This document shows positions 1-45,681 of a DNA stretch of 64,000 nucleotides, in pieces (the first letter of the stretch is position 1; every line of letters starts with the position of its first letter). The stretch is taken from sequence record OR992645.1; one strand, written 5' to 3'. The stretch is from Escherichia phage EI-SP-GF. A program made the translations under genes and the position numbers. The notes beneath the pieces are model-generated. The model saw only the letters and a list, made by a program, of their open reading frames with translations, had not been told where the DNA came from and ran no database searches.

Positions 1-92
1 GACATGCAGCTGCCTGAAAATGGCGGGGCAAGACTAGCGACCTTGCCCGAACATGAACGACACAATTCGAATGGGAGCAGATAGACTATCTG

Positions 93-32107: not shown

Positions 32108-32794
32108 ATGGCAGAGATTAAGTCGGATGTCAACCACATCCACACTCTGCCAGATTTTGTTCAGGGAGGTCTTGATTACCTGCCTGGAGATTTTCTGGCT
32201 GAGAAGGTTAATTTAGTCACATTCTTAACCGTGTACCTTAAAAGGTTGGAGGATGTTGATAAAATGCTGGTAGGCTTGGCTGAAGGAAGATTGCTTAACA
32301 ATGCCAGCGGGAGATACCTTGACGAAGTTGGTAATCAACTCGGTATTCTTCGGAATGGGCTTTCAGATGCGGATTTTCGTGCTACCCTGGTTATTCAGCA
32401 AGCAGCAGCATCAAGGGGTGGGACTCGCGAAGATGTCATCTCCACCTTGCGACAATTGTTCGGAAGAGACAATTTCGATACGTGGAAAGGTGACAATTTC
32501 AGGTTTGACATAAACATTAGAAAAACTTGCTTTGACATATTGCAGTCTATCGACCAGATCTTAGATATGCTGCCATTGCCTTGTCATTTGCGTCTTACGG
32601 AGTCGCAAGGGCAAGCTTTTGGTTTTGAAGGGGACTCTACAGCTCTCGGCTTCGGATCAGTGTGGGAAGAAAACCAGTTCGGGGTTGGTGGGCTGGCTAC
32701 TTTGTTATATGTTCCTGACGTAAGACCTGATTGGGATACCACAACTATTTATTGTGAAAGTATTACAGTAAACGCAACTAGACAGGAGGGTTAA
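32108..32794 (+). CDS. baseplate wedge protein (P2 gpI-like, tentative)
   Basis: 228-aa ORF immediately after baseplate J-like gene. Confidence 0.4.
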   Translation: MAEIKSDVNHIHTLPDFVQGGLDYLPGDFLAEKVNLVTFLTVYLKRLEDVDKMLVGLAEGRLLNNASGRYLDEVGNQLGILRNGLSDADFRATLVIQQAAASRGGTREDVISTLRQLFGRDNFDTWKGDNFRFDINIRKTCFDILQSIDQILDMLPLPCHLRLTESQGQAFGFEGDSTALGFGSVWEENQFGVGGLATLLYVPDVRPDWDTTTIYCESITVNATRQEG

Positions 32795-34866
32795 TGGCAA
32801 CAGCTGTTTTTAAACCTTACCGTGATTACTCTACAATGGCTGCACGGTTTCATTACCGCACAGTTCAGGATACTGCAGTTCCGGGTAGGGATTATGATCA
32901 TGTTGAGGGCGATGTAACTATCCCGGTTGGGGCAACCAGTATTGAGATCCCTGTAGAAATTGTTGACAAATTGCCAAACAGGTTGCCAAGAAGCTTCTTT
33001 ATGGAGTTTTCATCAAACTCCCAAGGGGTTATGATTGGAACACAAAGAGCGAAATGTACAATAGTTTCAGATGAGAATCTTGACAGAATATCTTGGGATA
33101 CCGTTGAGGAGAGAATGTTTCACCCAAGATACTGGGTTACAACCACACAGCAGACTGAAAGCACCTGTATTGTTGCGGATAATAACTGCTGTATTAACCG
33201 TTTAGTGTCAAGAACATATGGGGGCATGGCTGGGTGCATTTGGGAAACAGTTGACAAGTATGACCATTTCGGCATTGGATTTGATGATCACTACGAGATG
33301 AGAAACACCAAGCTTTGGTTCAGAATGTCAATAACCAATGCCAGCAACTTCTCCACCCCTGAAAAGATGATTATGACTGTAGACCTTGTTGATGGTACAA
33401 TCATCTATGTTCCTTTAGCTCAATATGCTGTCAGCATCTCAGAGGATAAGAATGTTGCAGAAATTCATATTGATTTCGAGGACTGCGTCGGGATGGACCA
33501 GAACAACAACATGATGGGTGTTGATCCTCGGCAGGTGAGAAGGATTCTAATACCACTTATGCCTAAAGATTGGGTAGGTAATAGCACAGACCCGAGAACG
33601 GAAAATGTAGAGTGTGAGTTGCGTCTAGATCTTCTTCAGCCGGACACAGGCTGGAAAATGATGCAACTTAACAATATTCAGGTGAAAGAACACGATGTTG
33701 GGATCTGCACAGCATATGACGATATGTGGAACGTATCCCCTTTAAGGGTGTTGAGCAATATCAAGCGTCTGGGCTATACAGGAACCATAAACCATTATGT
33801 TGGTATGAGCCATTATTATGACTACACATGGTCAGGAACCCAATGGTCTATAAACAAAACAGGAGCTCTAAACGCTGCAGCTTATAAATGGCATGATGAT
33901 TTTATGTACAATGCCAAACGACATGACTTCGACGTTATGCAGTCTGTAAGCTTTGAGCTTTATAGCGATGCCTGTCCGTTGGAATGGACCCAGAGAGACT
34001 GGAACGATAACTATGCTAAAACAGGCTATACGCCTTGTAGTTACCTCCTGTCTCCAACCATTGAAGAGGGCATGAATTTCCTTACTGCAGTATTTAAGAA
34101 TTTTGCATCAGCCGCTATGAGAAACAACCTGCCAGTGATTATGCAGATTGGTGAACCGTGGTGGTGGTTCAATACCGATACTCGTAAGCCTTGTATTTAT
34201 GACTACCCTACAAAGCAGGCGTTTTATGATGAGACTGGTGAATATGCACTAGACATTGGGACTATTGACGATCCTAAAACTGGCGGTGTTTATGACAAGT
34301 ATGTAGCATTTTGTCGTGGTAAGCTTGGCGCTCGTATTGCAGCCATTTCAAAGGCAATAAAAGCACACGCTGCATCGGCTCAGATGACAGCTTTACTGTT
34401 TTTCCCCACTATTATGGAAACCGAGCTTACGCAAAAACTGAACCTTGCTGACCAATATAAAAAGGAAGCAGGTGCTCTTGATTTCTTCTGCACTGAGTGC
34501 TACGATTGGGTGATGCAGGGAGGTATTGAAAAGGCAAAAGAGTCTGTAAACATACCTATCGTTAAGTTAGGTTGGAAACCGTCTGAAATACAATACCTTG
34601 CAGGGTTCGTTCCTAGCAAAGAGCTTGCTCCGGTATATGGCTACGACCCAACCAGGAATTACCAAGAATTTTTATGGAGATGTATTTGCGGAAACATGGC
34701 AACCATAGAGTATAGATACCCTGAGGTAAAACAGTATGTGTGGGCATACCCGCAAGTAATGTCTGACAGCATCACTGTTACCGCCAGAGATTCTACTGTT
34801 CTGCATATGGGGCAGGTTGCTCTGAAAGGGTATGTAGAAGATGTTGTTCCGCCAGACTTCTCATAA
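32794..34866 (+). CDS. tail-associated protein with N-terminal Calx-beta-like domain and large C-terminal domain (possible glycoside hydrolase / TIM-barrel)
   Basis: N-terminus VPGRDYDHVEGDVTIPVGATSIEIPVEIVD resembles Calx-beta motif; C-terminal region Trp-rich (GEPWWWF); enzymatic role is inference. Confidence 0.45.
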   Translation: MATAVFKPYRDYSTMAARFHYRTVQDTAVPGRDYDHVEGDVTIPVGATSIEIPVEIVDKLPNRLPRSFFMEFSSNSQGVMIGTQRAKCTIVSDENLDRISWDTVEERMFHPRYWVTTTQQTESTCIVADNNCCINRLVSRTYGGMAGCIWETVDKYDHFGIGFDDHYEMRNTKLWFRMSITNASNFSTPEKMIMTVDLVDGTIIYVPLAQYAVSISEDKNVAEIHIDFEDCVGMDQNNNMMGVDPRQVRRILIPLMPKDWVGNSTDPRTENVECELRLDLLQPDTGWKMMQLNNIQVKEHDVGICTAYDDMWNVSPLRVLSNIKRLGYTGTINHYVGMSHYYDYTWSGTQWSINKTGALNAAAYKWHDDFMYNAKRHDFDVMQSVSFELYSDACPLEWTQRDWNDNYAKTGYTPCSYLLSPTIEEGMNFLTAVFKNFASAAMRNNLPVIMQIGEPWWWFNTDTRKPCIYDYPTKQAFYDETGEYALDIGTIDDPKTGGVYDKYVAFCRGKLGARIAAISKAIKAHAASAQMTALLFFPTIMETELTQKLNLADQYKKEAGALDFFCTECYDWVMQGGIEKAKESVNIPIVKLGWKPSEIQYLAGFVPSKELAPVYGYDPTRNYQEFLWRCICGNMATIEYRYPEVKQYVWAYPQVMSDSITVTARDSTVLHMGQVALKGYVEDVVPPDFS

Positions 34867-34878
34867 TCAGGAGATAAA

Positions 34879-35919
34879 ATGTCAAAACCTAGTTTTCCAT
34901 TAGAGATTTGGGCAGAGGAGGATCAGGTTCTGCCTAACACCCACAGACAGAACAGGCTACGCCCGATTGATGATTTGTGGAGAAAAGGTTGGGATCTTGG
35001 TCAAAAGCCGTCATGTGAAGAACTTAACTATATTTTCAATATGCTCGGGACTTGGGCAAAATATATTGCTGACGAGCAGATCCCCGCCCAAGAGGGCCGT
35101 TATCTGGTACGTGATAATAACCTGAGCGATCTTCTGAACATTCCTGTCGCCCGTAGAAACCTTGGGATTATTACTAAGGAAGAGGCAGACGCCAGGTATG
35201 TAAAAGTTACAGGAGATACAATGACAGGCCCCTTAGGTTTGCAGCGTATCAACTTTAAAGCTGCCGAGACAGATAAGGCTTGGATAGAGACAACTATTGG
35301 TCCAGATAAGACAACTCTCGACTTTGGGTTAAGTGATAACACTGGGGCGTTTGATGATGGTGGCACATCTACAGTAGATGCGTTTCGTTGGAGATTCCAG
35401 CCAACTCAGCCAGACATTAATCCAGAGTTCACTTTGATGTACCTGAACGCGATCACGGCTAACCGTGCGCTGTTGAAAGTGGTAGGTAATGTTGAAGTTG
35501 TCGATAACATGCGGTGTAACAACCTTACCATCAGCAGCACAGCAACATTCACCAACTGTAATGTGGCTAGTCAGTTGACAGCTGGGTCCGTATATGTTAA
35601 TGGCGGCGCAAGTTGTGACAGTATGGTTGTAAGAAGCCAGCATTGTGTTGTCGGTAACAGAAATGTGGTGCGCTCTGTGAATGGAGTGACGGCTAACGGT
35701 AACGGCGATGTAACGATCACCATCCCGCAGACAGGGGTACAGGATATCAGAATCGGTGCAAGACTTGTTGATGGTGTTTCTGAATCTCCAGTTCGCAACG
35801 GCTACGTTGTCACAGGTTGGCATTTTGGTGATAAAAAAGAGATGCGTGGTTCAACCTACTGGGCAGGACCTTTACAAAAACTTGTAAATGGTCAATGGAT
35901 CACTGTTAATTATGCGTAG
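34879..35919 (+). CDS. tail fibre protein (short fibre, copy 1)
   Basis: 346 aa; TGDTMTGPL fibre motif; paralogous to 36935-37978; followed by Tfa chaperone. Confidence 0.7.
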   Translation: MSKPSFPLEIWAEEDQVLPNTHRQNRLRPIDDLWRKGWDLGQKPSCEELNYIFNMLGTWAKYIADEQIPAQEGRYLVRDNNLSDLLNIPVARRNLGIITKEEADARYVKVTGDTMTGPLGLQRINFKAAETDKAWIETTIGPDKTTLDFGLSDNTGAFDDGGTSTVDAFRWRFQPTQPDINPEFTLMYLNAITANRALLKVVGNVEVVDNMRCNNLTISSTATFTNCNVASQLTAGSVYVNGGASCDSMVVRSQHCVVGNRNVVRSVNGVTANGNGDVTITIPQTGVQDIRIGARLVDGVSESPVRNGYVVTGWHFGDKKEMRGSTYWAGPLQKLVNGQWITVNYA

Positions 35920-35933
35920 ATCGGAGGACTAGC

Positions 35934-36518
35934 ATGAAAATACTTCAAGAGTTTAAACTTTACCAACCGGGATCTGGCGAATACTACACCAACAAGGAGA
36001 CCAAGGAGCTGACTCCTCAGGAGGTTGAGGATTACACAGCATACACTGGATATTTTTTACGTAATGATGATGGCGATTGGTATGTGCAATCACGAACACT
36101 GCGACAAGAAAATCCCGGCTGTATCTTCTTACTTGTTGACGAGAAGGGTATTCTTAAGACATCTACAGAAGAACCTGATGCCTTGTGGCCTGCTCCAGGT
36201 CTTCGTGTGGTTATCGCCAAAAAAGAAGAGGTACCAGAAAACATTATGCTCCACCACGACGCTTTGCGTTTAGTTGGTGATGAATTTGTCACAGACAATG
36301 AATTCTTTGTTCAACAGGCAGAGGGTGTCATAGAGACAGAACTTGCTTGGGCTACTGCTAGAATTGGTGCCTATCAAGACATGATTGACCTTGAATACGA
36401 TCTTACTGATGACCAAAAACGCAACATCAGAGATTTGAAAATGTACAGGGTAAAACTTCTTGAAATAGATACATCTAAAGCCCCTGACATTTTCTTCCCG
36501 GAACGACCTACCCTCTAA
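35934..36518 (+). CDS. tail fibre assembly protein (Tfa / P2 gpG-like chaperone)
   Basis: C-terminal motif QKRNIRDLKMYRVKLLEIDTSKAPDIFFPERP matches the conserved Tfa C-terminal signature (..YR..L..vDts.APdI.WP..P). Confidence 0.75.
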   Translation: MKILQEFKLYQPGSGEYYTNKETKELTPQEVEDYTAYTGYFLRNDDGDWYVQSRTLRQENPGCIFLLVDEKGILKTSTEEPDALWPAPGLRVVIAKKEEVPENIMLHHDALRLVGDEFVTDNEFFVQQAEGVIETELAWATARIGAYQDMIDLEYDLTDDQKRNIRDLKMYRVKLLEIDTSKAPDIFFPERPTL

Positions 36519-36529
36519 GAGGAGGTGTT

Positions 36530-36844
36530 GTGGAGTTGGATTTGGCGGCATTGTACGGTATCTGCATGGGTACCGTTGTCCCGATCTGTGTATGGGCTTT
36601 CAACCAGTGGCACACCAAATGGAAAGGTATTTCCAAGAGGTTGGATGAGCTGGAGAAAGACCTCATTTTAGTGAAAAATAGCATGGTTACAAAAGATAGA
36701 CTTGATTCCATTATCGAGACCCGGTTAAGTAAGCTAGAGGCCGATATTAACGACCTTAAGCAAGATGTCAGGACAGATGTCTCCGGTATCCGAGCTGATG
36801 TACAAAAGATTTTGCACATGCTTGTAGAGCATAGTAAAAGGTAA
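36530..36844 (+). CDS. small membrane protein with N-terminal TM helix and coiled coil (holin/spanin-like candidate)
   Basis: 104 aa, GTG start with AAGAGGAGG RBS; hydrophobic LAALYGICMGTVVPICVWAF then charged coiled-coil. Confidence 0.4.
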   Translation: MELDLAALYGICMGTVVPICVWAFNQWHTKWKGISKRLDELEKDLILVKNSMVTKDRLDSIIETRLSKLEADINDLKQDVRTDVSGIRADVQKILHMLVEHSKR

Positions 36845-36874
36845 ACAAAGGTAAGAACGGTAAGGATGCCGTTC

Positions 36875-36903
36875 TTGCATTTTGTTCTCTAAAGTGTTAA
36901 AAT
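36875..36903 (+). promoter_or_regulatory. sigma70-like promoter TTGCAT-N17-TAAAAT with TGn, overlapping a weak upstream hairpin (36855-36874)
   Basis: ttgcat 36875-36880, 17-nt spacer ending tgt, taaaat 36898-36903. Confidence 0.45.
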
Positions 36904-36934
36904 AGTCCTTAAGGAATTTTCTCAGGAGAATGTG

Positions 36935-37978
36935 ATGACTAAACCAGTTATCCCTCTCGATATTTGGGCCAATCAGGATGTTGTGCTTGAAAATACAGGA
37001 GAGTTGAACAAGTCTCAACCGAACAAAGAAGAGAGATTGAAAGGTTGGGATATGACACAAAGGATAGCATGTGAAGTTGTTAACTTTGAACTCCACATGC
37101 TCTCTGCGTGGCTAAAGCATTTAACAGAAGATGTTGTCCCTGGATGGGATAATAGATTCTTAAGGGTCACTAATAATCTGGCAGACGTTCCAGACAAAGC
37201 TGCTGCACGTAAAGTCCTCAATGTATACTCGCCTGAAGAAATGGATGACCTGTATGTTGACAAGACTGGGGACACAATGACCCAGACTCAAACTTTGGGT
37301 CTTCAAAGAATCGAGTTTGCATCCGCGTCAACAGACAATGCAGCGATATACACCACCATAACTCCAGACAAAACGATGATGGATTTCTGGATTATGGACA
37401 ACATCGGCGGCGCTGACGGCACAGACCTTGATGATCCTTCTCACCAAATAGACGGTTTCCGTTGGAGATTTCAACCTTCTGGTGGGCAGCCTGTGTTTTC
37501 GGCTATGAAGCTTAATGCTATAACTGCCAACCGTGCAAGACTGGCTATCCAAGGGAATCTTGAATGCAATGATGCAAAAAGCTCCTCTGCAAATGCTAAT
37601 GCGGTAACGATACCAAGAGCCACTGTTAATGGACAACAATCCTGCGGCAGCGCTCAAATAGGTGGAAGAGTGGATTGTAACGATAACACCGCCAGGGGTC
37701 AATATGCAACAGTTGGTGGGAGAAACGTGGTCCGCAGGGTAAATGGTAGTAGCGCAGATAGCAGTGGTAACCTTACTATTCCTATGCCTAGTAGGGGTGT
37801 TGAAGATGTAAGGATAGCAAACCGTTTCAGAACCACCTACAGAGAATCAAGAGTATACCCTGGGCATGTAATGTGCTCCGGCAATTACGCCTATAAACAC
37901 CCGTATCAAGGCGACTATTGGACTGGTGCCATTCAAAAATTTGTAAACGGTCAATGGATCACTATATCTTATGCTTAA
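36935..37978 (+). CDS. tail fibre protein (short fibre, copy 2, paralog of 34879-35919)
   Basis: N-terminus PLDIWANQDVVLEN / KTGDTMTQTQTLGLQRIEF and C-terminus ...FVNGQWITISYA align with copy 1 (...LVNGQWITVNYA); ATG 36935 preferred over GTG 36932. Confidence 0.7.
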   Translation: MTKPVIPLDIWANQDVVLENTGELNKSQPNKEERLKGWDMTQRIACEVVNFELHMLSAWLKHLTEDVVPGWDNRFLRVTNNLADVPDKAAARKVLNVYSPEEMDDLYVDKTGDTMTQTQTLGLQRIEFASASTDNAAIYTTITPDKTMMDFWIMDNIGGADGTDLDDPSHQIDGFRWRFQPSGGQPVFSAMKLNAITANRARLAIQGNLECNDAKSSSANANAVTIPRATVNGQQSCGSAQIGGRVDCNDNTARGQYATVGGRNVVRRVNGSSADSSGNLTIPMPSRGVEDVRIANRFRTTYRESRVYPGHVMCSGNYAYKHPYQGDYWTGAIQKFVNGQWITISYA

Positions 37979-37987
37979 AGAGGGTAA

Positions 37988-38254
37988 ATGAAATTAACTC
38001 AGTTTTTATGGGGGTTGGTTGCGGCATCGGATGACCCTACGAAAGTGTCCCAATCTAAGCTATGGTCAAACATAGGCATGGCAGTGATGACTGGGGTGTT
38101 TATTCATATGGGGTACAATGATACGCTTCCTGAATGGTATGCGTGGATATACGCACCTTCAGTAGCCTGCCCCCAGCTTATTAGCAAATTCATCTCGCTC
38201 CGGTGGGGTTGCCAGCACCCTGACCACGTTAAAAACGAAGAGCAAAAAGCTTAA
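37988..38254 (+). CDS. small hydrophobic membrane protein (possible holin-like)
   Basis: 88 aa with at least two hydrophobic segments (FLWGLVAAS; NIGMAVMTGVFIHMGY; WYAWIYAPSVA). Confidence 0.4.
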   Translation: MKLTQFLWGLVAASDDPTKVSQSKLWSNIGMAVMTGVFIHMGYNDTLPEWYAWIYAPSVACPQLISKFISLRWGCQHPDHVKNEEQKA

Positions 38255-38263
38255 GGAGAAATC

Positions 38264-40009
38264 ATGGCGCAAGACATGACAAGCTTCGAGCAGGCGGTAG
38301 ATCAAGTAATTGTTGATTCTGAACGTTTGCACTTGGTTGTCAACGGTAACGCTGTGGATGAAGTTGTCGTAGAGGATGGGACCACTATCCCTACGGTACG
38401 AAAAGCCATGCTTGACAACCTTTATTTTAAAACGCCACCGATCCCTTGGGCGTATGGTGCATCCACAACAGTTTTTAACCAGCTGTATGAGTTTAAAGGA
38501 GATACAGGCCCTCAGTGGTGGTACGCTCCAGCAGCGTCAAAATCTAACCCGGTTAGGATGCCAGCAGATCCTTCACAATCTCCGAACTGGAGATTATACA
38601 CCGACTCTGCAGTAATGGCAAAATACTACGCAAAACTTAACAGCCCAAGGTTCGAAGGTGACCCGAGAGTACCTACACCTCCAATGGATGATAAGTCCGA
38701 GTCTATAGCAAACACAGAGTTTGTTGTTGACTATGTGGATAGCATATTTAAAGCCATGGAGGGGATGAAAGTTACTGTAGGATCTTTGGTGGTAAAAGGT
38801 CTTACAGAACTTGCTAACACTATAGTTGGGGGTACCCTTACCTTACACGGACCTGTTAATGGAGCAGATTCTACTGCACGCTTCAGGAACCTAATCCTTA
38901 CGGCAAATACTTCTACACTGACTTTTGCGTGGAGCGATCCTAAGCATGCAGACTGGAGAAGCACAGAGCTGCAACCTCATGAAGTATCAACTCACAGAGT
39001 TATAGCTGACACTATAACTTCTGGGAAACCAGTGGCTAATAACAACGATGTGCATTTTGATGGTCTAGGTAATAACTTTTTTGACTACGTGTACATTCGC
39101 GGTAATGCCATGAAGGCAGCCACCGAACCGACATTGCAGGTTGATGGGACCACCAGGGTTAAGAACCTTGAGGTGACAGGCACCGTTACAGGGATAACCT
39201 ACTCTGTAGATGGCACCATGATCTACCCTAGCTATATTGAAAGCACGGGAGATGCACTGATCAATGGAGATTTAGAGGTTGGCGGATCTATAGTCATTCG
39301 TGGCACAGCATCTGTCCAGAACATATCTTTAAATACTCTGAGGGTGAATGAGCGTGCCACTTTTGAAGGAGAAGGGCTTACAGCCAACAAAGGTGTAATT
39401 ACCGAGCTGACAACCACCACTTTAACTGCAACAACTGCAAACTCTGAAAACTGCAACGTTACCAGAAACTTGCAGGTAAATGGAGATGTTAGTTTAAACG
39501 CAGCAGGGACTGGCACCACCTACCTTCACAACCTTGAAATATCAGGTACAGTGACTGGGTGGCTGCCAGACTTCTCTAATGTCAACTTTGTCTGTAATGG
39601 CATTAACTCCAGTGGCAAGATAACCACCTCTCAAGAAATTGAAGCTGGTAAAACTATTACTGCCCCTGCTTTCCATGCAGGGAAGGTGGAGTTTGACTTA
39701 GAGGAGGCTGACGCATCTAGTGGGACATGGACACCTAACGGGCAGGCCAATATGTATGTTGTCCACGCGAAAGGGGACTTTACAATAGGGCAATGGCCTG
39801 GAACATCGGCTGAAGATAAACCTTACCCGTTCACTGCAATCATCTATGTCATTCAGGATGCTGTAGGCCACAACGTGACTTTACACGATAAATATGCCAT
39901 ACTGTCGGCTACTCCTGTTATTAACAACAAAGCCAACAGTGTCACCTTGCTACAATTGACATATTGTGGTGTTGGTGATATTGTGGATGTGGTTATTGCA
40001 CAACGTTAA
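38264..40009 (+). CDS. tail fibre protein with beta-helix-like repeats
   Basis: 581 aa; N-terminus MAQDMTSFEQAVDQVIVDSERLHLVVNG typical of fibre N-termini; repetitive T/G/N-rich beta-strand segments. Confidence 0.6.
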   Translation: MAQDMTSFEQAVDQVIVDSERLHLVVNGNAVDEVVVEDGTTIPTVRKAMLDNLYFKTPPIPWAYGASTTVFNQLYEFKGDTGPQWWYAPAASKSNPVRMPADPSQSPNWRLYTDSAVMAKYYAKLNSPRFEGDPRVPTPPMDDKSESIANTEFVVDYVDSIFKAMEGMKVTVGSLVVKGLTELANTIVGGTLTLHGPVNGADSTARFRNLILTANTSTLTFAWSDPKHADWRSTELQPHEVSTHRVIADTITSGKPVANNNDVHFDGLGNNFFDYVYIRGNAMKAATEPTLQVDGTTRVKNLEVTGTVTGITYSVDGTMIYPSYIESTGDALINGDLEVGGSIVIRGTASVQNISLNTLRVNERATFEGEGLTANKGVITELTTTTLTATTANSENCNVTRNLQVNGDVSLNAAGTGTTYLHNLEISGTVTGWLPDFSNVNFVCNGINSSGKITTSQEIEAGKTITAPAFHAGKVEFDLEEADASSGTWTPNGQANMYVVHAKGDFTIGQWPGTSAEDKPYPFTAIIYVIQDAVGHNVTLHDKYAILSATPVINNKANSVTLLQLTYCGVGDIVDVVIAQR

Positions 40010-40057: not shown

Positions 40058-40834
40058 ATGCTTCCAATCCCTTTGCTAAAACTTGGTCGTCATTTCCTCG
40101 ATAAGAGGGGTGGAGTTAAGGAACTTGCTGTTCTGTCATACCCAATAGACAACAGTGACGGTACAAGCACTACAGTAGCCTATGTAAATAGCTTAGCTAT
40201 ACTTTTTGACGATGGTCAGCTTAATATTACTGGCTATAACAAGTTCGGGGAGTGTCGCACTGGGGATCGTAACCCTATAAACTACCCGAGCGAGACGGCC
40301 TGGAATGTTGATCATGTGTGGAGAGCAGACCGTGCGTTTGTGATCCGGACTTTTGATAACCAGTTTTTCTACATCGGCTGCACTGCAGGTCTTATCGGAT
40401 CCACTGCGGCAGGTGGTAACGATGTTTGCGTAAACGAGTGGACACCTCTTCCGGAACAGATTGTTAAAGGATTGCACCTTGACACCCACCCAGAGCGCCT
40501 TATTGAGGTAATGGGAGGTATTAACAACACTGTCTGGGTTATTGCAGAGGCAGAAGGTACTGGCATACTGAACCTGTATGGGTCTGGTAACAACACCTAC
40601 GGATCTTTACATGTAGATAAAAACCAGCATGCAACTCCTGTAAAGATTGGTGAAACATCAGAAAATCCTGAAACAGGCCCTTGGAAAAACCCAAGTATCA
40701 ACTGCGAGGTGCATGACAACTCTGTTATTTTCGGTGGGCCTAGAGGTTTTTGGATTGCTGGATACGACTTTCTGAGAAACAACAGTAGAAACGACCTTGT
40801 TTGGCCCCTGCTCAGATTACTCGCAACGATTTGA
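40058..40834 (+). CDS. RCC1-like beta-propeller repeat protein (possible N-terminal part of the following giant protein)
   Basis: 258 aa with GxNxxGxLG-like repeats (YGSGNNTYGSLHVD); ORF ends inside the start region of the 1626-aa ORF in another frame. Confidence 0.5.
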   Translation: MLPIPLLKLGRHFLDKRGGVKELAVLSYPIDNSDGTSTTVAYVNSLAILFDDGQLNITGYNKFGECRTGDRNPINYPSETAWNVDHVWRADRAFVIRTFDNQFFYIGCTAGLIGSTAAGGNDVCVNEWTPLPEQIVKGLHLDTHPERLIEVMGGINNTVWVIAEAEGTGILNLYGSGNNTYGSLHVDKNQHATPVKIGETSENPETGPWKNPSINCEVHDNSVIFGGPRGFWIAGYDFLRNNSRNDLVWPLLRLLATI

Positions 40835-40869
40835 AAGGCATTCCTGCAGATGAGGAGTGGAAAGGATTC

Positions 40870-43800
40870 ATGTGTGGTCCGAACGGGGCGATAATTGCAA
40901 CGCAGAGGATGCACAAGCCTAATGATCAGCAACTTGTTAACGTATTCTACGGGCAAGATGTCTGGGGAGATGATACATGGCGTTCCTTAAATATTACCTA
41001 CACCCATGAAGTAATAATGGCTCGTGGGTACGGAACAAGTGGCATTTTCTTCAATAATGGTACTAAGCAGTATCGCGGATTCTCTCGCAACCTGTGCAAC
41101 GATATTGGAGCACAATCTGCAAACAATAATCCTCGCGCCAATTTTATCCATTATCAAGCTCTTGCTACAGCCAAGTATGTTGAGCAACGACTGCCAGTTA
41201 GCTGGACAGAGAGTGTTTACTTCCAGGGTATTCATAGAGAAGGTTTTTTAGGGACCTTTACCGTTGTTAATGGCAAACTTTGGTGGTCAGGCATCCCAAG
41301 GGGAAGTTTTGCAGGATCTAATAACCTGTTTGGCGGCAGACTTAACAGCCAGGGGTTCACAGAGGTTCCTGAGAATTGGTATAAAAATGTCCCAGTAGAT
41401 AGTTGGGATATTGATGATATTTTTGACGTTAACGGTGTTAGCAGTGTTAGCAATATTTACATCGGTGACACGGTCAAGATGAAATTGAAGCCTCAACCAG
41501 AGGGGGCCACGTTCATTATTGACAAGATTGAACTGGTAAATGCTGCAGGCACGGTTGTTACAGATGCAAATTACCAATTCTCCACCAACTGGAACCACGG
41601 CGGGGCCAACGAGGTTGTTGTTACTCAGTATAACAGAAATGTTAACAGACGCGGTCTGTACTCTGTAAAAATAACCTATCATGACAAGCATGGCACGGGC
41701 AGAACTCACACAACAAGGACTTTGAACTGGAACACTATAGTTCCTGCGTATCCGTCTGATGGTAAATGGCACACTGTAGGCAGAAACAAACAGTTCCATG
41801 TTAACGATACTGTGTACTTTGGGCTTAACGCTGCTCAGCCAGCTCCAGAAAGCGATACAGCGTATATGGTTCGGCTGCACAGGCAAGATGCTGGGTCTGT
41901 TACCTACGATGTGACCCAAGAGATCTACAATCAGAGACGCTCCACGTATGACAATATTGTGAAAACACAAGCCTTGTGGGAGTTCAACCCTAACGGCAAA
42001 GGTGGTAAAATGTTGCAGGTTAACGAGCAAAACGGAACATCGTTAACTGTCCACGAACACCCAGACCCTTGGCCTGACCCTGGTAAACCTAACTCAGGTG
42101 CTCGCACACTGCAAGTTGTCAGTCATGATGTAGGCTATTTTGGGATACGTTGGGAGGCCACAGTAAAATATGCCGATGGGACAACAAACAACATAGGGAT
42201 TACGCTTGGTGGCACTAGTGAGAGTAACTCGCTGAAAATTGCCTACACTCCTAGAGGTATCTCTATTGACAACATGGATATAGTCCGTAACGGTTACGGA
42301 GATGTAAACATCAAAGTTACTCTTGGTGAGCATCTTGGCGGAGAAAGGATCATTATGTATGCCTTTGATCATGACCCTCGAACCAACGGAACTTATGCAA
42401 ATCAGGCCTGGAGTTACCTGATAAGTGCACCTGAGCCGAATACTAAAGAATTCTACTACGGTATGAAGCGAGATGTGTGCAAGAAAACAGGAACACACGA
42501 CTGGATTGCTATCTGTGTTAAAGATGAGAGAACAGCTTGGGATGAGCCTGTTAACCGCTGGTTCATAGGTATTCCCACCAGAAGTGATAAATACGTTGAA
42601 GAATATATTGTATGTATGGGCGGCACCAACCTCAACATGTGTTGGAACGAGGACGCAAACAAATATTCTGATTATGACTATATGAGGGACTACTCTTGTA
42701 ATCAATGGTTCAACCAATCCGGGTATGCTAATAGACAGTCAAGGGTAAACCCTGCAATCTTCACAGATACGCAGGTTTTCTTGACAAAACAGGCCAACGA
42801 GGTTCAGACCTTCAAGAACAACTATGATCCTAACAAGTGGTTCTACAACTGTTCCGGAGCAATATTCTGGGGGCCTGGTGAACTGCCTGATAGTGGTTCT
42901 TGCTTCGAGGCTGCAACCTATGGCAGTGACTATATTATGGGGCAGGTCAAGAAGTACAAGATGATTCCAGGACCTGAAACTTTAGGTAATGCTGTTGACC
43001 CGTACATAAATTTCGCAGCTATACATGCTAATATGGATGGAGAGAGATATCCGTTTGTTGTTCCGTTAACTTGGGGGTACAAACGTGTCGTGATGATTAT
43101 TAAATGCGATCTGATCGGGAAGCAAGTTCTTGCAGAAAATGGAACATCCACACACCCTTTTGAAGTTGCTCTGCACTACCAGTTTGCAGACTCACCATAT
43201 GCAGGGGATAAAAGAATATCCGACACAGACTCTAAGCGCTGTAAGAAAGTTTTACTTGGAGCCGGGTGGTGGTGGTACGAGTTTGATTTGACAGATAAGT
43301 TCACAGATGATACCAAAACTCTCACAGGTATCCGTCTGGACCTTGGTGAGAACATGCATAAAAGTGTTTGTGATGGTACCTACGGTGACCCTACGGTATA
43401 TCTAAAGTATGTTTCTCTTGAGCATCGCGAAGAGGATGTTTACGGTCCAAAACTGAGATTGTTTGGCGCATGGATTGCCAAAGACAGAGTAGGTATGGGT
43501 AAGAAGGTGAGAGGCTTCTTGATAGATGTAGGGACAGAGGACATGCTGGTTAATGCAGTATGGCCTGAATTACCCGGAACTCAGTGGAACAACTCTGCCA
43601 AATCTATAAACTGGTACAATATTCACAGAGCTATGTGGACCACTAACTGCTACTTGTGGAGAGAGCTTAACGATCAGGCCTTTGGCTTTAGTAACGGCAG
43701 AAGGATGGCGATCATTTGCTGGACAACATTGCAAAGATGTTATGACCATGACTATGAGATTGGTGGTAGGGCATGGAAAGATATCAGGGACAGAGTTATA

Positions 43801-45681
43801 TACAATTTTGCAGACGATAATGGTGGCGGGGCATATAACTTTGGCACAAGCCGACTTATCCATTTGAACGGATCCTCAGCCTACAAGAAAGAGGGTTACT
43901 CTGGGTCTATGATTGAGTGGGGTCTGGTGAAAGATGCTCGCGTATTGATGGGTCAACAACTTGCTGCTGCAATAGGACCTAGCGCAGTGCAGTCGGTTAA
44001 ACCAGCGTGGTTCGATATCCCAATATGGTCATCTGGAACACCAGGAACTGCGGCAATTAACCCTACCACCGGAGATTTGGAAATCTCTTGGGAGGACTTA
44101 AAGCAGGTCGGTGGCTGGGATAAGACTGGGTACCAGGTGCAATGGTGGAGATCTGACGGATCGTTAGCGGCTGATGAGTTTGTTAAGGACAATTTCTACA
44201 CCATGTCCTCTGCAAAAGCACAACAATTGTTTGGTCAGGCCACCCCGTCAACGATCACTATGTCCATGTGCTGTAAAGACAACAGGACGGGAGCTCTGGG
44301 ACCAAGGGTTGCTAAAGTTTTCTCAGGTATTAAATGGAATCTCCCTGTTCAAAGTGTTTCATGGAAGCAAATAGGTGATAACAAGCTGCTGGTTACTCCT
44401 GCCTGTCAGTTCAACGCAACTCTTAACGTTGATCCTGCTGTTGCGGCAAACTCAGCTAAAGCTTCTGACTTCTCTGTGTCTAACACTGCTATGGCAGATG
44501 TGAGGAAGATTGACACACTGAACGCCAGAATTACCTGTAAAAACACTTATGGCACATTCCAGATCATCAACAACTTCACAGATGCTGATTCTAAGGTAGT
44601 AAGGACAGCAAGCCAGACTATGCAGTTGGGCACTCTGGCATACTCTGCCCTGATCACTGAACAATCTCCTACTCTTCAGGGTGGGGGTGTTGGTAAGTTG
44701 ATCACAACACCTGTGTGGAAGCCAAATGAGTGGGTTGTGTTTGATTTGACTGTAGACTTCTCCAGTGACAATAACTGGACATGGGTAAGGAATTGCTTGC
44801 CACAGTTGATGGGCGGTCCAAATTCCGTTAGTGATAGCCACGACTCTACCGATCCGAGCGTGTTCCAGGTGGGGAAAACTCACCCAGAGACTGGGGAAAC
44901 GTTGCCTGACAGGAAGTATGCTTTAGTTTGCATCTCCAACGGCAAGGCAGATATAACCTTCTCGGGGATACACTCGTATAACGGCACTTACAACTTCTCT
45001 AAAAAGTACAGCCTCAAGGCAGGTAACATTATAGACGAAGTTGGTCCGTTATATAACCCAGGTAACGGTATTGGGATTGTAACTGGTATTCTTCCTATGC
45101 AGGAGCCTTCTATAACCCCAGCCAACGTGCCTGGTATCAGAAAAACTTGGGAAAGTAGCAATACCAATATTGCAACAGTGGATGCTACCACAGGACTGGT
45201 AACATTTAAGGCTACCGGGAATGTCACCATAAGGTTTGTAGTTACAGATGATGCAGGCCGCAAAACGTCTTCAACATCGTTTACTGTCAAACAGATGGCA
45301 CCTCAGTGGTTTATTTGGGAAGGAAATCCTCTTGACGGGGCTTACCCTAGACCTGCAGGAACGTCTAATATGAGGGTCTTTACCGGTCCAGTCATGGACA
45401 ATCCAACCACAACCACCAACCCTGCATTTTTTGGTGCTTACATACCTGAAATTATTGGCCTACCAAGGAACCAAATACAATTGCTTTTCGGGGCAGGCGT
45501 TGATGGTCTAGCCACTTTCGGGTACAGTGACAACATTGATGCAGCCAGAAGCTCGGGTTGGATTGGATTTAAGTTCCAGTGGAACCCTGGTGGTAGAACA
45601 TTAGGTCTTGCAAGTGTAGGTGTTATGCTGCCTGGCAACCAGCAATACCATCTCGAAGCTTATACAAACTTCCCTAGTTAA
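40870..45681 (+). CDS. giant virion-associated protein with propeller-like repeats and C-terminal Ig-like (BIG2-like) domain
   Basis: frame open from 40789; track start is TTG 40801 without RBS, first ATG 40870; BIG2-like segment NVPGIRKTWESSNTNIATVDATTGLVTFKATGNVTIRFVVTDDAGRKT near C-terminus. Confidence 0.6.
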   Translation: MCGPNGAIIATQRMHKPNDQQLVNVFYGQDVWGDDTWRSLNITYTHEVIMARGYGTSGIFFNNGTKQYRGFSRNLCNDIGAQSANNNPRANFIHYQALATAKYVEQRLPVSWTESVYFQGIHREGFLGTFTVVNGKLWWSGIPRGSFAGSNNLFGGRLNSQGFTEVPENWYKNVPVDSWDIDDIFDVNGVSSVSNIYIGDTVKMKLKPQPEGATFIIDKIELVNAAGTVVTDANYQFSTNWNHGGANEVVVTQYNRNVNRRGLYSVKITYHDKHGTGRTHTTRTLNWNTIVPAYPSDGKWHTVGRNKQFHVNDTVYFGLNAAQPAPESDTAYMVRLHRQDAGSVTYDVTQEIYNQRRSTYDNIVKTQALWEFNPNGKGGKMLQVNEQNGTSLTVHEHPDPWPDPGKPNSGARTLQVVSHDVGYFGIRWEATVKYADGTTNNIGITLGGTSESNSLKIAYTPRGISIDNMDIVRNGYGDVNIKVTLGEHLGGERIIMYAFDHDPRTNGTYANQAWSYLISAPEPNTKEFYYGMKRDVCKKTGTHDWIAICVKDERTAWDEPVNRWFIGIPTRSDKYVEEYIVCMGGTNLNMCWNEDANKYSDYDYMRDYSCNQWFNQSGYANRQSRVNPAIFTDTQVFLTKQANEVQTFKNNYDPNKWFYNCSGAIFWGPGELPDSGSCFEAATYGSDYIMGQVKKYKMIPGPETLGNAVDPYINFAAIHANMDGERYPFVVPLTWGYKRVVMIIKCDLIGKQVLAENGTSTHPFEVALHYQFADSPYAGDKRISDTDSKRCKKVLLGAGWWWYEFDLTDKFTDDTKTLTGIRLDLGENMHKSVCDGTYGDPTVYLKYVSLEHREEDVYGPKLRLFGAWIAKDRVGMGKKVRGFLIDVGTEDMLVNAVWPELPGTQWNNSAKSINWYNIHRAMWTTNCYLWRELNDQAFGFSNGRRMAIICWTTLQRCYDHDYEIGGRAWKDIRDRVIYNFADDNGGGAYNFGTSRLIHLNGSSAYKKEGYSGSMIEWGLVKDARVLMGQQLAAAIGPSAVQSVKPAWFDIPIWSSGTPGTAAINPTTGDLEISWEDLKQVGGWDKTGYQVQWWRSDGSLAADEFVKDNFYTMSSAKAQQLFGQATPSTITMSMCCKDNRTGALGPRVAKVFSGIKWNLPVQSVSWKQIGDNKLLVTPACQFNATLNVDPAVAANSAKASDFSVSNTAMADVRKIDTLNARITCKNTYGTFQIINNFTDADSKVVRTASQTMQLGTLAYSALITEQSPTLQGGGVGKLITTPVWKPNEWVVFDLTVDFSSDNNWTWVRNCLPQLMGGPNSVSDSHDSTDPSVFQVGKTHPETGETLPDRKYALVCISNGKADITFSGIHSYNGTYNFSKKYSLKAGNIIDEVGPLYNPGNGIGIVTGILPMQEPSITPANVPGIRKTWESSNTNIATVDATTGLVTFKATGNVTIRFVVTDDAGRKTSSTSFTVKQMAPQWFIWEGNPLDGAYPRPAGTSNMRVFTGPVMDNPTTTTNPAFFGAYIPEIIGLPRNQIQLLFGAGVDGLATFGYSDNIDAARSSGWIGFKFQWNPGGRTLGLASVGVMLPGNQQYHLEAYTNFPS

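Follow-up and report, generated by a model that had tools for sequence, protein, structure and literature searches.

Introduction

The short tail fibres of rV5-like phages have been described as a pair of related proteins encoded beside one assembly chaperone. In rV5 itself, Kropinski 2013 (PMC3606486) reported gp30 and gp33 to be 42.3 % identical, likened both to short tail fibres, detected them together with gp32 in virions and proposed two lipopolysaccharide (LPS) chemotypes, and Maffei 2021 (PMC8594841, Fig S5C-D) described a Mu S/U-related set of two short-tail-fibre paralogues and one chaperone. We analysed the corresponding locus in a 64,000 nucleotide stretch of Escherichia phage EI-SP-GF (OR992645.1; hereafter the window), where two short tail fibre genes, designated fibA and fibB, are separated by a tail fibre assembly chaperone gene (Tfa) and a small membrane protein gene (o104). 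As Kropinski 2013 and Maffei 2021 already give the observation and its interpretation, neither the fibre pair with a single Tfa nor the idea of dual specificity is new for the rV5 group. Absent from the literature on the rV5 locus are the replacement of another membrane protein gene (o157), the remodelled anchor of fibB and a sister clade with homogenized tips. Our analysis adds the orthology of fibA, the position of fibB in the o157 slot, the identification of fibA as nearest kin of the fibB tip and the sister clade with its gene conversion. We favour the reading, at a probability of roughly 60 %, that the locus encodes two co-expressed virion short fibres of the Mu S type that would have distinct anchors and one Tfa, with a tip loop that has diverged in fibB.

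Several described systems frame this comparison. Phage Mu (S/U and S'/U' of the invertible G segment; structure 5yvq) shares with the window a homologous C-terminal tip and a Caudo_TAP gene directly 3' of the fibre gene; its chaperone stays in Mu virions, and gp32 is reported in those of rV5. The two differ in that Mu places one fibre type on each particle through DNA inversion, each tip with its own chaperone, whereas both fibre genes of the window are complete, on the same strand and, in the reading favoured here, co-expressed, with one chaperone gene. The locus lacks the layout of an invertible cassette of the Mu G or P1 C type, which has two fibre 3' parts in opposite orientation between inverted repeats: both genes are on the plus strand and only chance-level short inverted repeats were found in 34500-38400, an invertase gene not having been searched for. 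Phi92-like phages (fibre III, gp147), Seunavirus (PVP-SE1 group), Avunavirus, Mydovirus and phiTE have the same wedge-binding N-terminal domain and most have the same tip. Single-fibre relatives resemble the window in carrying wedge genes upstream and Tfa then o104 downstream, and differ in having one fibre and a 157-aa polytopic membrane-protein gene at the position of Vequintavirus fibB. Residues 3-92 of the phiTE short tail fibre bind wedge protein 1 (PMC11972413), and the wedge protein that carries the homologous fibre III in phi92 is gp145. T4 gp12 is similar in its presumed role, irreversible LPS-core binding under the baseplate, and an HHpred match of gp30 and gp33 to it has been reported (Kropinski 2013, PMC3606486). 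Our PDB sequence and fold searches gave no match between T4 gp12 and fibA or fibB. T4 gp12 folds with the chaperone gp57A, not with a Caudo_TAP Tfa. The rV5-like phages are among the commonest broad-host-range E. coli isolates and have a place in cocktails for biocontrol and therapy; which fibre contacts the cell irreversibly, and whether the second fibre widens the usable LPS core types, bears on host-range prediction and engineering.

Two intact short tail fibre genes with a single chaperone gene

Region 34500-38400 shared 99.7 % identity with Escherichia phage vB_EcoM-ECP26 and 95-98 % with over 110 further Vequintavirus myophages, placing the window in Vequintavirus (rV5-like myophages). 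The locus is syntenic with rV5 genes 30-34 and lies directly downstream of the baseplate wedge module: a Baseplate_J protein, a 228-aa baseplate protein and a 690-aa fibre are encoded upstream of fibA, Tfa is found 3' of fibA, and fibB lies two genes beyond Tfa. The rV5 counterparts are genes 33 (346 aa, fibA), 32 (194 aa, Tfa, Caudo_TAP), 31 (104 aa) and 30 (347 aa, fibB), with the same order, sizes and predicted promoter (P030), and nothing essential differs in the window. In the BASEL phage WalterGehring the same stretch is annotated as short tail fiber, tail fiber chaperone, hypothetical protein, short tail fiber, hypothetical protein and lateral tail fiber.

An earlier note on this DNA had described two fibre paralogues of 346 and 348 aa, and this description is accurate: both open reading frames (ORFs) are present, the C-termini it quoted are correct, and an alignment over the entire length of the proteins gives 43 % identity (E 8e-95), their DNA being about 50 % identical. 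Both proteins cover the PHROG 4465 profile (342 positions) over its full length, fibA with residues 1-346 and fibB with residues 2-348 (Table 1). The length of fibB is 348 aa from the GTG at 36932 and 347 aa from the ATG at 36935; the latter is the better start because it lies 6 nt past a Shine-Dalgarno AGGAG (36924-36928) and because rV5 gp30 has 347 aa. In a PDB sequence search the N-terminal parts matched the phiTE short tail fibre (9cuy), more weakly for fibB (residues 2-83, E 2.4e-8) than for fibA (residues 1-108, E 1.5e-19). At the other end, residues 286-343 of fibA aligned to residues 440-501 of Mu S (5yvq; BLASTP E 1e-6), and residues 286-347 of fibB to Mu S residues 438-504 (E 0.004). 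For fibB, whose native form is trimeric, an AlphaFold2 model of the monomer had a mean pLDDT of 61 and a pTM of 0.27 and served for strand placement and one Foldseek match: the Mu fibre-chaperone complex (5yvq_A) was its sole significant match in the PDB (E 3.2e-6).

Neither copy is disabled. At least 95 % identity to fibA was found in 115 records and at least 93 % identity to fibB in 116 records, the latter all Vequintavirus, and relative to WalterGehring the dN/dS ratio was 0.015 for fibA (dN 0.004) and 0.070 for fibB (dN 0.021), a non-synonymous rate about five times higher for fibB. Because dN/dS is low, the frames are intact in about 115 genomes and both proteins have been found in rV5 virions, we consider both genes functional and under purifying selection. 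Virion presence is taken from the main text of Kropinski 2013; the part of the rV5 mass-spectrometry supplement available as text contains no peptides of gp30, gp32 or gp33.

The statement that only the first fibre gene is followed by a Tfa also stands, since Tfa comes directly after fibA and fibB is followed by the 88-aa o88. An own Caudo_TAP gene directly downstream, as in Mu, is present for fibA and absent for fibB. Tfa matched Caudo_TAP (PF02413) at 45.5 bits (cut-off 22.1), with residues 121-192 on profile positions 60-130, corresponding to the conserved C-terminal helical domain, and matched phrog_136 with an E-value of 1e-36. A profile hidden Markov model built from nine Tfa proteins found no second Tfa among the ORFs of the window (one match only; next best E 0.29), and a hidden second copy was rejected within the window. 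Beyond it, a single Caudo_TAP protein appears among the rows listed of the rV5 gene table.

Origin of the second fibre gene

A single short fibre gene followed by Tfa was found in Av-05 (Avunavirus), SalP219, GAP31, Csp-D17 (Seunavirus), BIS47 (Mydovirus) and PaulScherrer (phi92-like). The fibres of Av-05, SalP219 and GAP31 were 47-52 % identical to fibA and 41-44 % identical to fibB, with fibA and fibB 44 % identical to one another in the same comparison. The difference was larger in tip segment 293-326, where Av-05, SalP219 and a phi92-like phage have single fibres that matched fibA at 56-59 % identity, as against 24 % for fibB. Because fibA is closer to single fibres than to fibB, both overall and in the tip, we regard it as the orthologue of the single short fibre of the sister genera. 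The LPS outer core's first glucose (GlcI) serves as terminal receptor for Vequintavirus and phi92-like phages, and, since the phi92-like phages share this receptor, fibA rather than fibB is likely to be the GlcI binder.

In Av-05, SalP219, GAP31, BIS47 and Csp-D17 the gene order is fibre, Tfa, o104, o157, o88 and a 581-aa fibre. The o157 gene encodes a polytopic membrane protein of 157 aa (PHROG 7451); of the 107 phage records that contain it, not one is a Vequintavirus. Exactly the slot that o157 has in these relatives is taken in Vequintavirus by fibB with its promoter spacer, and from this synteny we conclude that Vequintavirus lost o157 and that fibB took its place. Avunavirus, Seunavirus and Mydovirus carry three annotated or predicted membrane-protein genes (o104, o157 and o88) between Tfa and the 581-aa fibre, located at 5638-6701 in the relative designated L003, 5686-6755 in L004 and 5650-6719 in L006, and phiTE-like phages also carry an o157 homologue.

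Two further lineages with both fibre genes were recovered. A diverged lineage in Logan assemblies (L007-L009) had the same architecture, with fibB 78 % and fibA 88 % identical to the window; its fibB tip was nearly unchanged, with few substitutions over the final 55 residues. An uncultured sister clade was reached through a fibA-like protein at 74 % identity, which led to an ENA contig (L014), and through a scan of IMG/VR, which yielded four contigs of 118-140 kb (L016-L019). Its gene order is fibA (346 aa), Tfa (204-205 aa), o104, fibB (354-355 aa), an o88 homologue and a lateral fibre, and no GenBank phage record reaches 60 % identity to its fibB. One further record with fibA at 60-80 % identity was not recovered at E <1e-100 and is probably a partial match. 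The fibB proteins of the sister clade and the window share the derived N-terminal motifs QPxKE, SQRIA and NFELxM, and a neighbour-joining tree placed all fibB proteins, from three lineages, in one clade sister to the fibA clade. The shared motifs and the tree indicate that a single duplication occurred before Vequintavirus and the sister clade separated.

A horizontal origin of the fibB tip was considered and rejected. Among 1.84 billion representative proteins, its nearest relative outside its own cluster was fibA (47 % identity, E 1.6e-16), and so the tip diverged in place instead of being imported.

Anchor, tip and predicted promoter of fibB

The family motif of the N-terminal anchor, RPIDDLW-KGWD-G-KP...NY, was compared at the sequence level through 29 columns within residues 1-66, each conserved in 90 % or more of 28 other family members. 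These residues are retained by fibA at 28 of 29 positions in the window (28-29 across lineages), and by fibB at 16 of 29 (16-18 across its three lineages). Outside the anchor, family-conserved residues are retained about equally by both proteins, and the anchor appears to be the region where fibB departs most from the family. Wedge-protein sizes did not differ between two-fibre and single-fibre phages, giving no hint of an extra docking site.

In the tip, the fibB model places strands at 291-301, 311-317, 327-337 and 340-343. A fibB-specific segment, CSGNYAYKHPYQG (about residues 312-326), lies between strands in the model and is diverged from fibA. This loop is an obvious target for swaps and mutagenesis.

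The earlier note had further held that the second fibre gene is preceded by a small membrane protein and by its own promoter, and both points agree with our results. The 104-aa product of o104 has one N-terminal hydrophobic segment (Kyte-Doolittle maximum 1.91, residues 5-23), and its rV5 counterpart gp31 is listed as a membrane protein with one transmembrane domain (Kropinski 2013, PMC3606486, Table S3). The predicted promoter is the published P030, a putative late promoter (Kropinski 2013, PMC3606486, Table S4), and it is conserved in every two-fibre lineage fetched. It contains the rV5 late motif TGTTAAAATA at 36895-36904; the window holds 21 matches to this motif family (19 on the plus strand), an enrichment over the 5.9 expected. 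The promoter architecture, with its exact 17-nt spacing, is kept in Vequintavirus, the L007 lineage and the sister clade, while the sequence of the spacer differs.

Between o104 and fibB, a very stable stem-loop extends over the -35 element of this promoter. It includes a terminator-like site (36851-36878), keeps its loop motif, AAGGA, in the diverged lineages and is not among the published rV5 terminators. Possibly it is a partial terminator, which may attenuate read-through from fibA, Tfa and o104.

Similarity at the gene ends and gene conversion

The paralogues had been said to share conserved termini around a variable middle, with near-identical DNA at their 3' ends, an arrangement that would allow cassette exchange. 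Identity was indeed high over residues 1-20 (60 %) and 331-346 (69 %), yet along the proteins it was patchy: in 20-residue windows it was 25-35 % over residues 21-100, 55-65 % over 101-158, 20-25 % over 215-250, 60 % over 251-270 and 25-40 % over 271-330, and the N-terminal domain as a whole (1-66) was 41 % identical, not above the gene average. At the DNA level no long homology was found at either end. The near-identity of the 3' ends is real over about 30 nt, where 28 of 30 positions agree, and is limited to that tract: the longest exact run, 15 nt, falls inside it, and the surrounding similarity extends over 63 nt at 76 %. At the 5' ends, 36 of 60 nt are common to both genes, with a longest run of 12 nt. 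At their 3' ends both genes encode P/A-[LIV]-Q-[KY]-x-[VI]-N-G-x-W, a C-terminal motif that Mu S and S', the fibre of swi3 and the short tail fibre of phiTE likewise carry. Being common to these fibres, the C-terminal motif is best read as a hallmark of the fold, not as a boundary particular to fibA and fibB. We found neither the extended DNA identity at both ends nor the allelic mosaics among relatives that would mark a recombination cassette, nor any allele replacement in about 115 genomes; exchange of cassettes through the conserved gene ends is unsupported by the sequences at this locus.

Conversion between the two genes was apparent in the sister clade. Under purifying selection, its fibA and fibB share 45 % identity in the body but 79-83 % in the tip (last 66 aa). 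Its fibB tip bears residues derived in the fibA lineage (LIDG, VRxGYVM), where the fibB of the window retains the ancestral YPGHVM; fibA has therefore overwritten that tip. Among 19 nucleotide sites in the last 174 nt that are diagnostic of either copy, fibB-type states were found in fibA at 9 consecutive sites in L018 and 7 in L017, and at none of the 19 in L014, L016 and L019. We take these tracts to indicate that short-tract gene conversion between the 3' tips is ongoing in the sister clade, and it is demonstrable there only. Recent conversion in L014 was rejected, the synonymous sites of its tips being saturated (18 of 46 codons the same).

Within the genus of the window, the 30-nt tract is identical between fibA and fibB at 30 of 30 positions in WalterGehring and 29 of 30 in L007, and WalterGehring and L007 differ in it by three lineage-specific synonymous variants, each common to both copies. 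Saturation of synonymous sites leaves the three kinds of site pattern equally frequent over the whole genes: 12 concerted, 15 orthologous and 12 cross, the last kind carrying no meaning. Conversion at the 3' end within this genus was rejected, as the 30-nt tract was only nominally significant and concerted patterns did not exceed cross patterns.

Possible sharing of the chaperone

In Tfa proteins, a variable N domain makes the contact with the fibre tip and a conserved C domain mediates trimerization. The Tfa of the window and of L007 carries an insertion of about 12 aa in the N domain (residues ~13-26), which neither Mu U and U' nor any of the single-fibre relatives examined has; in the sister clade, Tfa is even longer, at 204-205 aa. 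The N domains of Mu U and U' are 72 % identical though the S and S' tips are only 36 % identical, and by this analogy it is plausible that a single Tfa could serve two tips that are 43 % identical.

Tip and chaperone travel together in Seunavirus, where the entire Tfa has been exchanged in one module with the fibre's C-terminal third, the breakpoint lying inside the fibre gene: fibre identity is 83-93 % over the first ~120 residues, mostly 60-90 % in the shaft and 13-46 % over most of the C-terminal part. In a 52-kb myophage family, swi3 (Rosemountvirus; L011, 2352-4238) encodes a 444-aa fibre followed by a Tfa-like gene. The last ~60 residues of this fibre are 58.6 % identical to the fibA tip (tblastn), or 49 % over the last ~75 aligned, and the tip module is therefore common to unrelated phage families.

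Proposed mechanism and alternative explanations

Building on the homology, orthology, synteny, purifying selection and promoter architecture described above, the favoured reading can be set out as follows. The ancestral fibre would be fibA, which has kept the canonical N-terminal anchor (wedge-docking in phiTE) and a tip like that of the GlcI-binding single-fibre relatives. A single duplication in the ancestor of Vequintavirus and the sister clade would have given rise to fibB, which would have replaced o157 and come under its own promoter. Because its anchor is remodelled, we infer that fibB docks at a different site or on a different partner, and it would then not compete with fibA for a socket. 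In Vequintavirus, divergence of the surface loop of the fibB tip may have changed or widened binding. The extreme C-terminus would form core beta-strands of the Mu-S-type tip and may also let one Tfa fold both fibres. Dual receptor specificity, as suggested in the earlier note, is plausible on this basis, since residues 293-326 of the fibB tip are only 24 % identical to fibA. In a fuller version, which we regard as possible but somewhat doubtful, the duplication would not have arisen to gain another receptor but would have produced a second, differently anchored fibre set on the same Tfa, with the tips tied together by conversion and by the chaperone, as in the sister clade, until the loop escaped in Vequintavirus and gained a new specificity. 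If true, these phages would offer a natural series from one to two terminal-receptor fibres, and the conserved last strands would mark a chaperone-recognition element.

Several observations weigh against the favoured reading. On K-12, every Vequintavirus phage tested requires the same LPS sugar, with no sign of a second terminal receptor in that host, and since the sister clade keeps both fibres with near-identical tips, receptor diversification cannot be the general reason for having two. Tips that are ~42 % identical in Seunavirus (L004, L006 and L013) come with Tfa proteins only 22 % identical, in genomes whose flanking o104 is 94-95 % identical; as these equally diverged tips have unrelated Tfa proteins, sharing of the chaperone is not guaranteed, and fibB might fold without Tfa. 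The fibB promoter is a predicted one, and the monomer model of fibB (pLDDT 61) is of low confidence.

The sister clade also lends itself to an account in which fibB adds a second ring of short fibres with another anchor or shaft geometry for the same receptor, the tip differences in Vequintavirus being secondary. Dosage or geometry of this kind would fit bodies that have diverged while their tips are held together by purifying selection and ongoing conversion, an anchor remodelled in all three fibB lineages, and the dependence of all tested Vequintavirus phages on one LPS core sugar. We nevertheless think it unlikely from the sequences: the fibB tip loop of Vequintavirus and L007 is far from fibA yet highly conserved among fibB orthologues, which points to selection for a distinct function. 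That fibB is instead a decaying or non-functional duplicate, or a decoy that does not enter the virion, is effectively refuted. Its roughly fivefold higher dN and the loss of many family-conserved anchor residues might suggest decay, but its dN/dS is 0.070, its frame is intact in 116 records and two diverged lineages, its own predicted promoter is conserved, and rV5 gp30 was detected in virions (Kropinski 2013, PMC3606486).

Exchangeable cassettes, with the conserved 5' and 3' ends as recombination boundaries between which middles or alleles are swapped and host range is changed, would account for the 63-nt 3' tract and its 30-nt core, for the 29-30 nt matches between copies in WalterGehring and L007 with their three shared synonymous variants, and for the conversion tracts between tips in the sister clade (9 consecutive sites in L018, 7 in L017); modular exchange moreover does occur in Seunavirus. 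The unit exchanged elsewhere, however, is the fibre tip plus Tfa, bounded within the fibre gene. Exact matches at the gene ends of the window reach only 15 nt (3') and 12 nt (5') in DNA that is ~50 % identical, and the terminal protein motifs are family-wide (Mu S, swi3, phiTE fibre). Concerted site patterns (12) do not outnumber cross patterns (12), the 3' cluster being nominal only, and not one allele replacement is seen in ~115 genomes (also Maffei 2021, PMC8594841). We consider exchange of this kind very unlikely, and place it between the dosage account and the decay of fibB in probability.

Neighbouring genes and other observations

Table 1. Coordinates of the features of the short tail fibre locus, numbered from the first nucleotide of the window.
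Feature	Position	Strand	Remarks
fibA, short tail fibre, 346 aa (rV5 gp33)	34879..35919	+	phrog_4465, E 4.5e-171; regarded as fibre orthologue of sister genera
30-nt 3' tract of fibA	35875..35904	+	28/30 nt identical to fibB tract
Tfa, tail fibre assembly chaperone, 194 aa (rV5 gp32)	35934..36518	+	Pfam PF02413; phrog_136
o104, 104 aa, N-terminal transmembrane segment and coiled coil (rV5 gp31)	36530..36844	+	phrog_5345, E 1e-48
Stem-loop between o104 and fibB, followed by U-rich stretch	36845..36885	+	-20.5 kcal/mol; z -5.9 against shuffles
fibB promoter-like element, TTGCAT-17 nt-TG-n-TAAAAT	36875..36904	+	corresponds to rV5 P030; in 90-nt spacer 5' of fibB
fibB, second short tail fibre, 347 aa from ATG (rV5 gp30)	36935..37978	+	phrog_4465, E 1.8e-163; lineage-specific paralogue
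30-nt 3' tract of fibB	37934..37963	+	matches fibA tract; encodes QKFVNGQWIT, last tip beta-strands (327-337, 340-343 in model)
o88, annotated membrane protein (rV5 gp29)	37988..38254	+	phrog_1322, E 2.7e-32; upstream of 581-aa lateral fibre

The o104 gene lies 3' of Tfa in all Vequintavirinae examined, with orthologues in Av-05, SalP219, GAP31, BIS47 and Csp-D17, and its phi92-like counterpart gave a weak match to Rz-like spanin profiles (E 5e-4). The product of o88 is weakly hydrophobic (scan maximum 1.05) and has orthologues in Av-05, SalP219, GAP31 and Csp-D17.

For the 690-aa protein encoded upstream of fibA (32794-34866), the Pfam matches (E 7e-80) were to the TIM-barrel and N domains of the non-contractile tail sheath protein. 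Published work on these phages describes a tail-fibre protein with an N4 gp65-related deacetylase domain, linked to recognition of the enterobacterial common antigen (ECA) or NGR glycan. The large lateral tail-fibre gene at 40058-45681 is split in the window into parts of 258 and 1626 aa, where WalterGehring has a single coding sequence of 1875 aa. The split falls around 40804, at a C-run one base shorter than in ECP26 (GGCCCC versus GGCCCCC), and the gene of ECP26 is also split, at another site; in the window it may reflect a sequencing error or a homopolymer frameshift. Lastly, 16 records named 'Campylobacter phage' (MG065635, MG065662, MG065672 and others; host C. jejuni) were ~95 % identical to the Vequintavirus locus and are probably mislabelled or contaminant phages.

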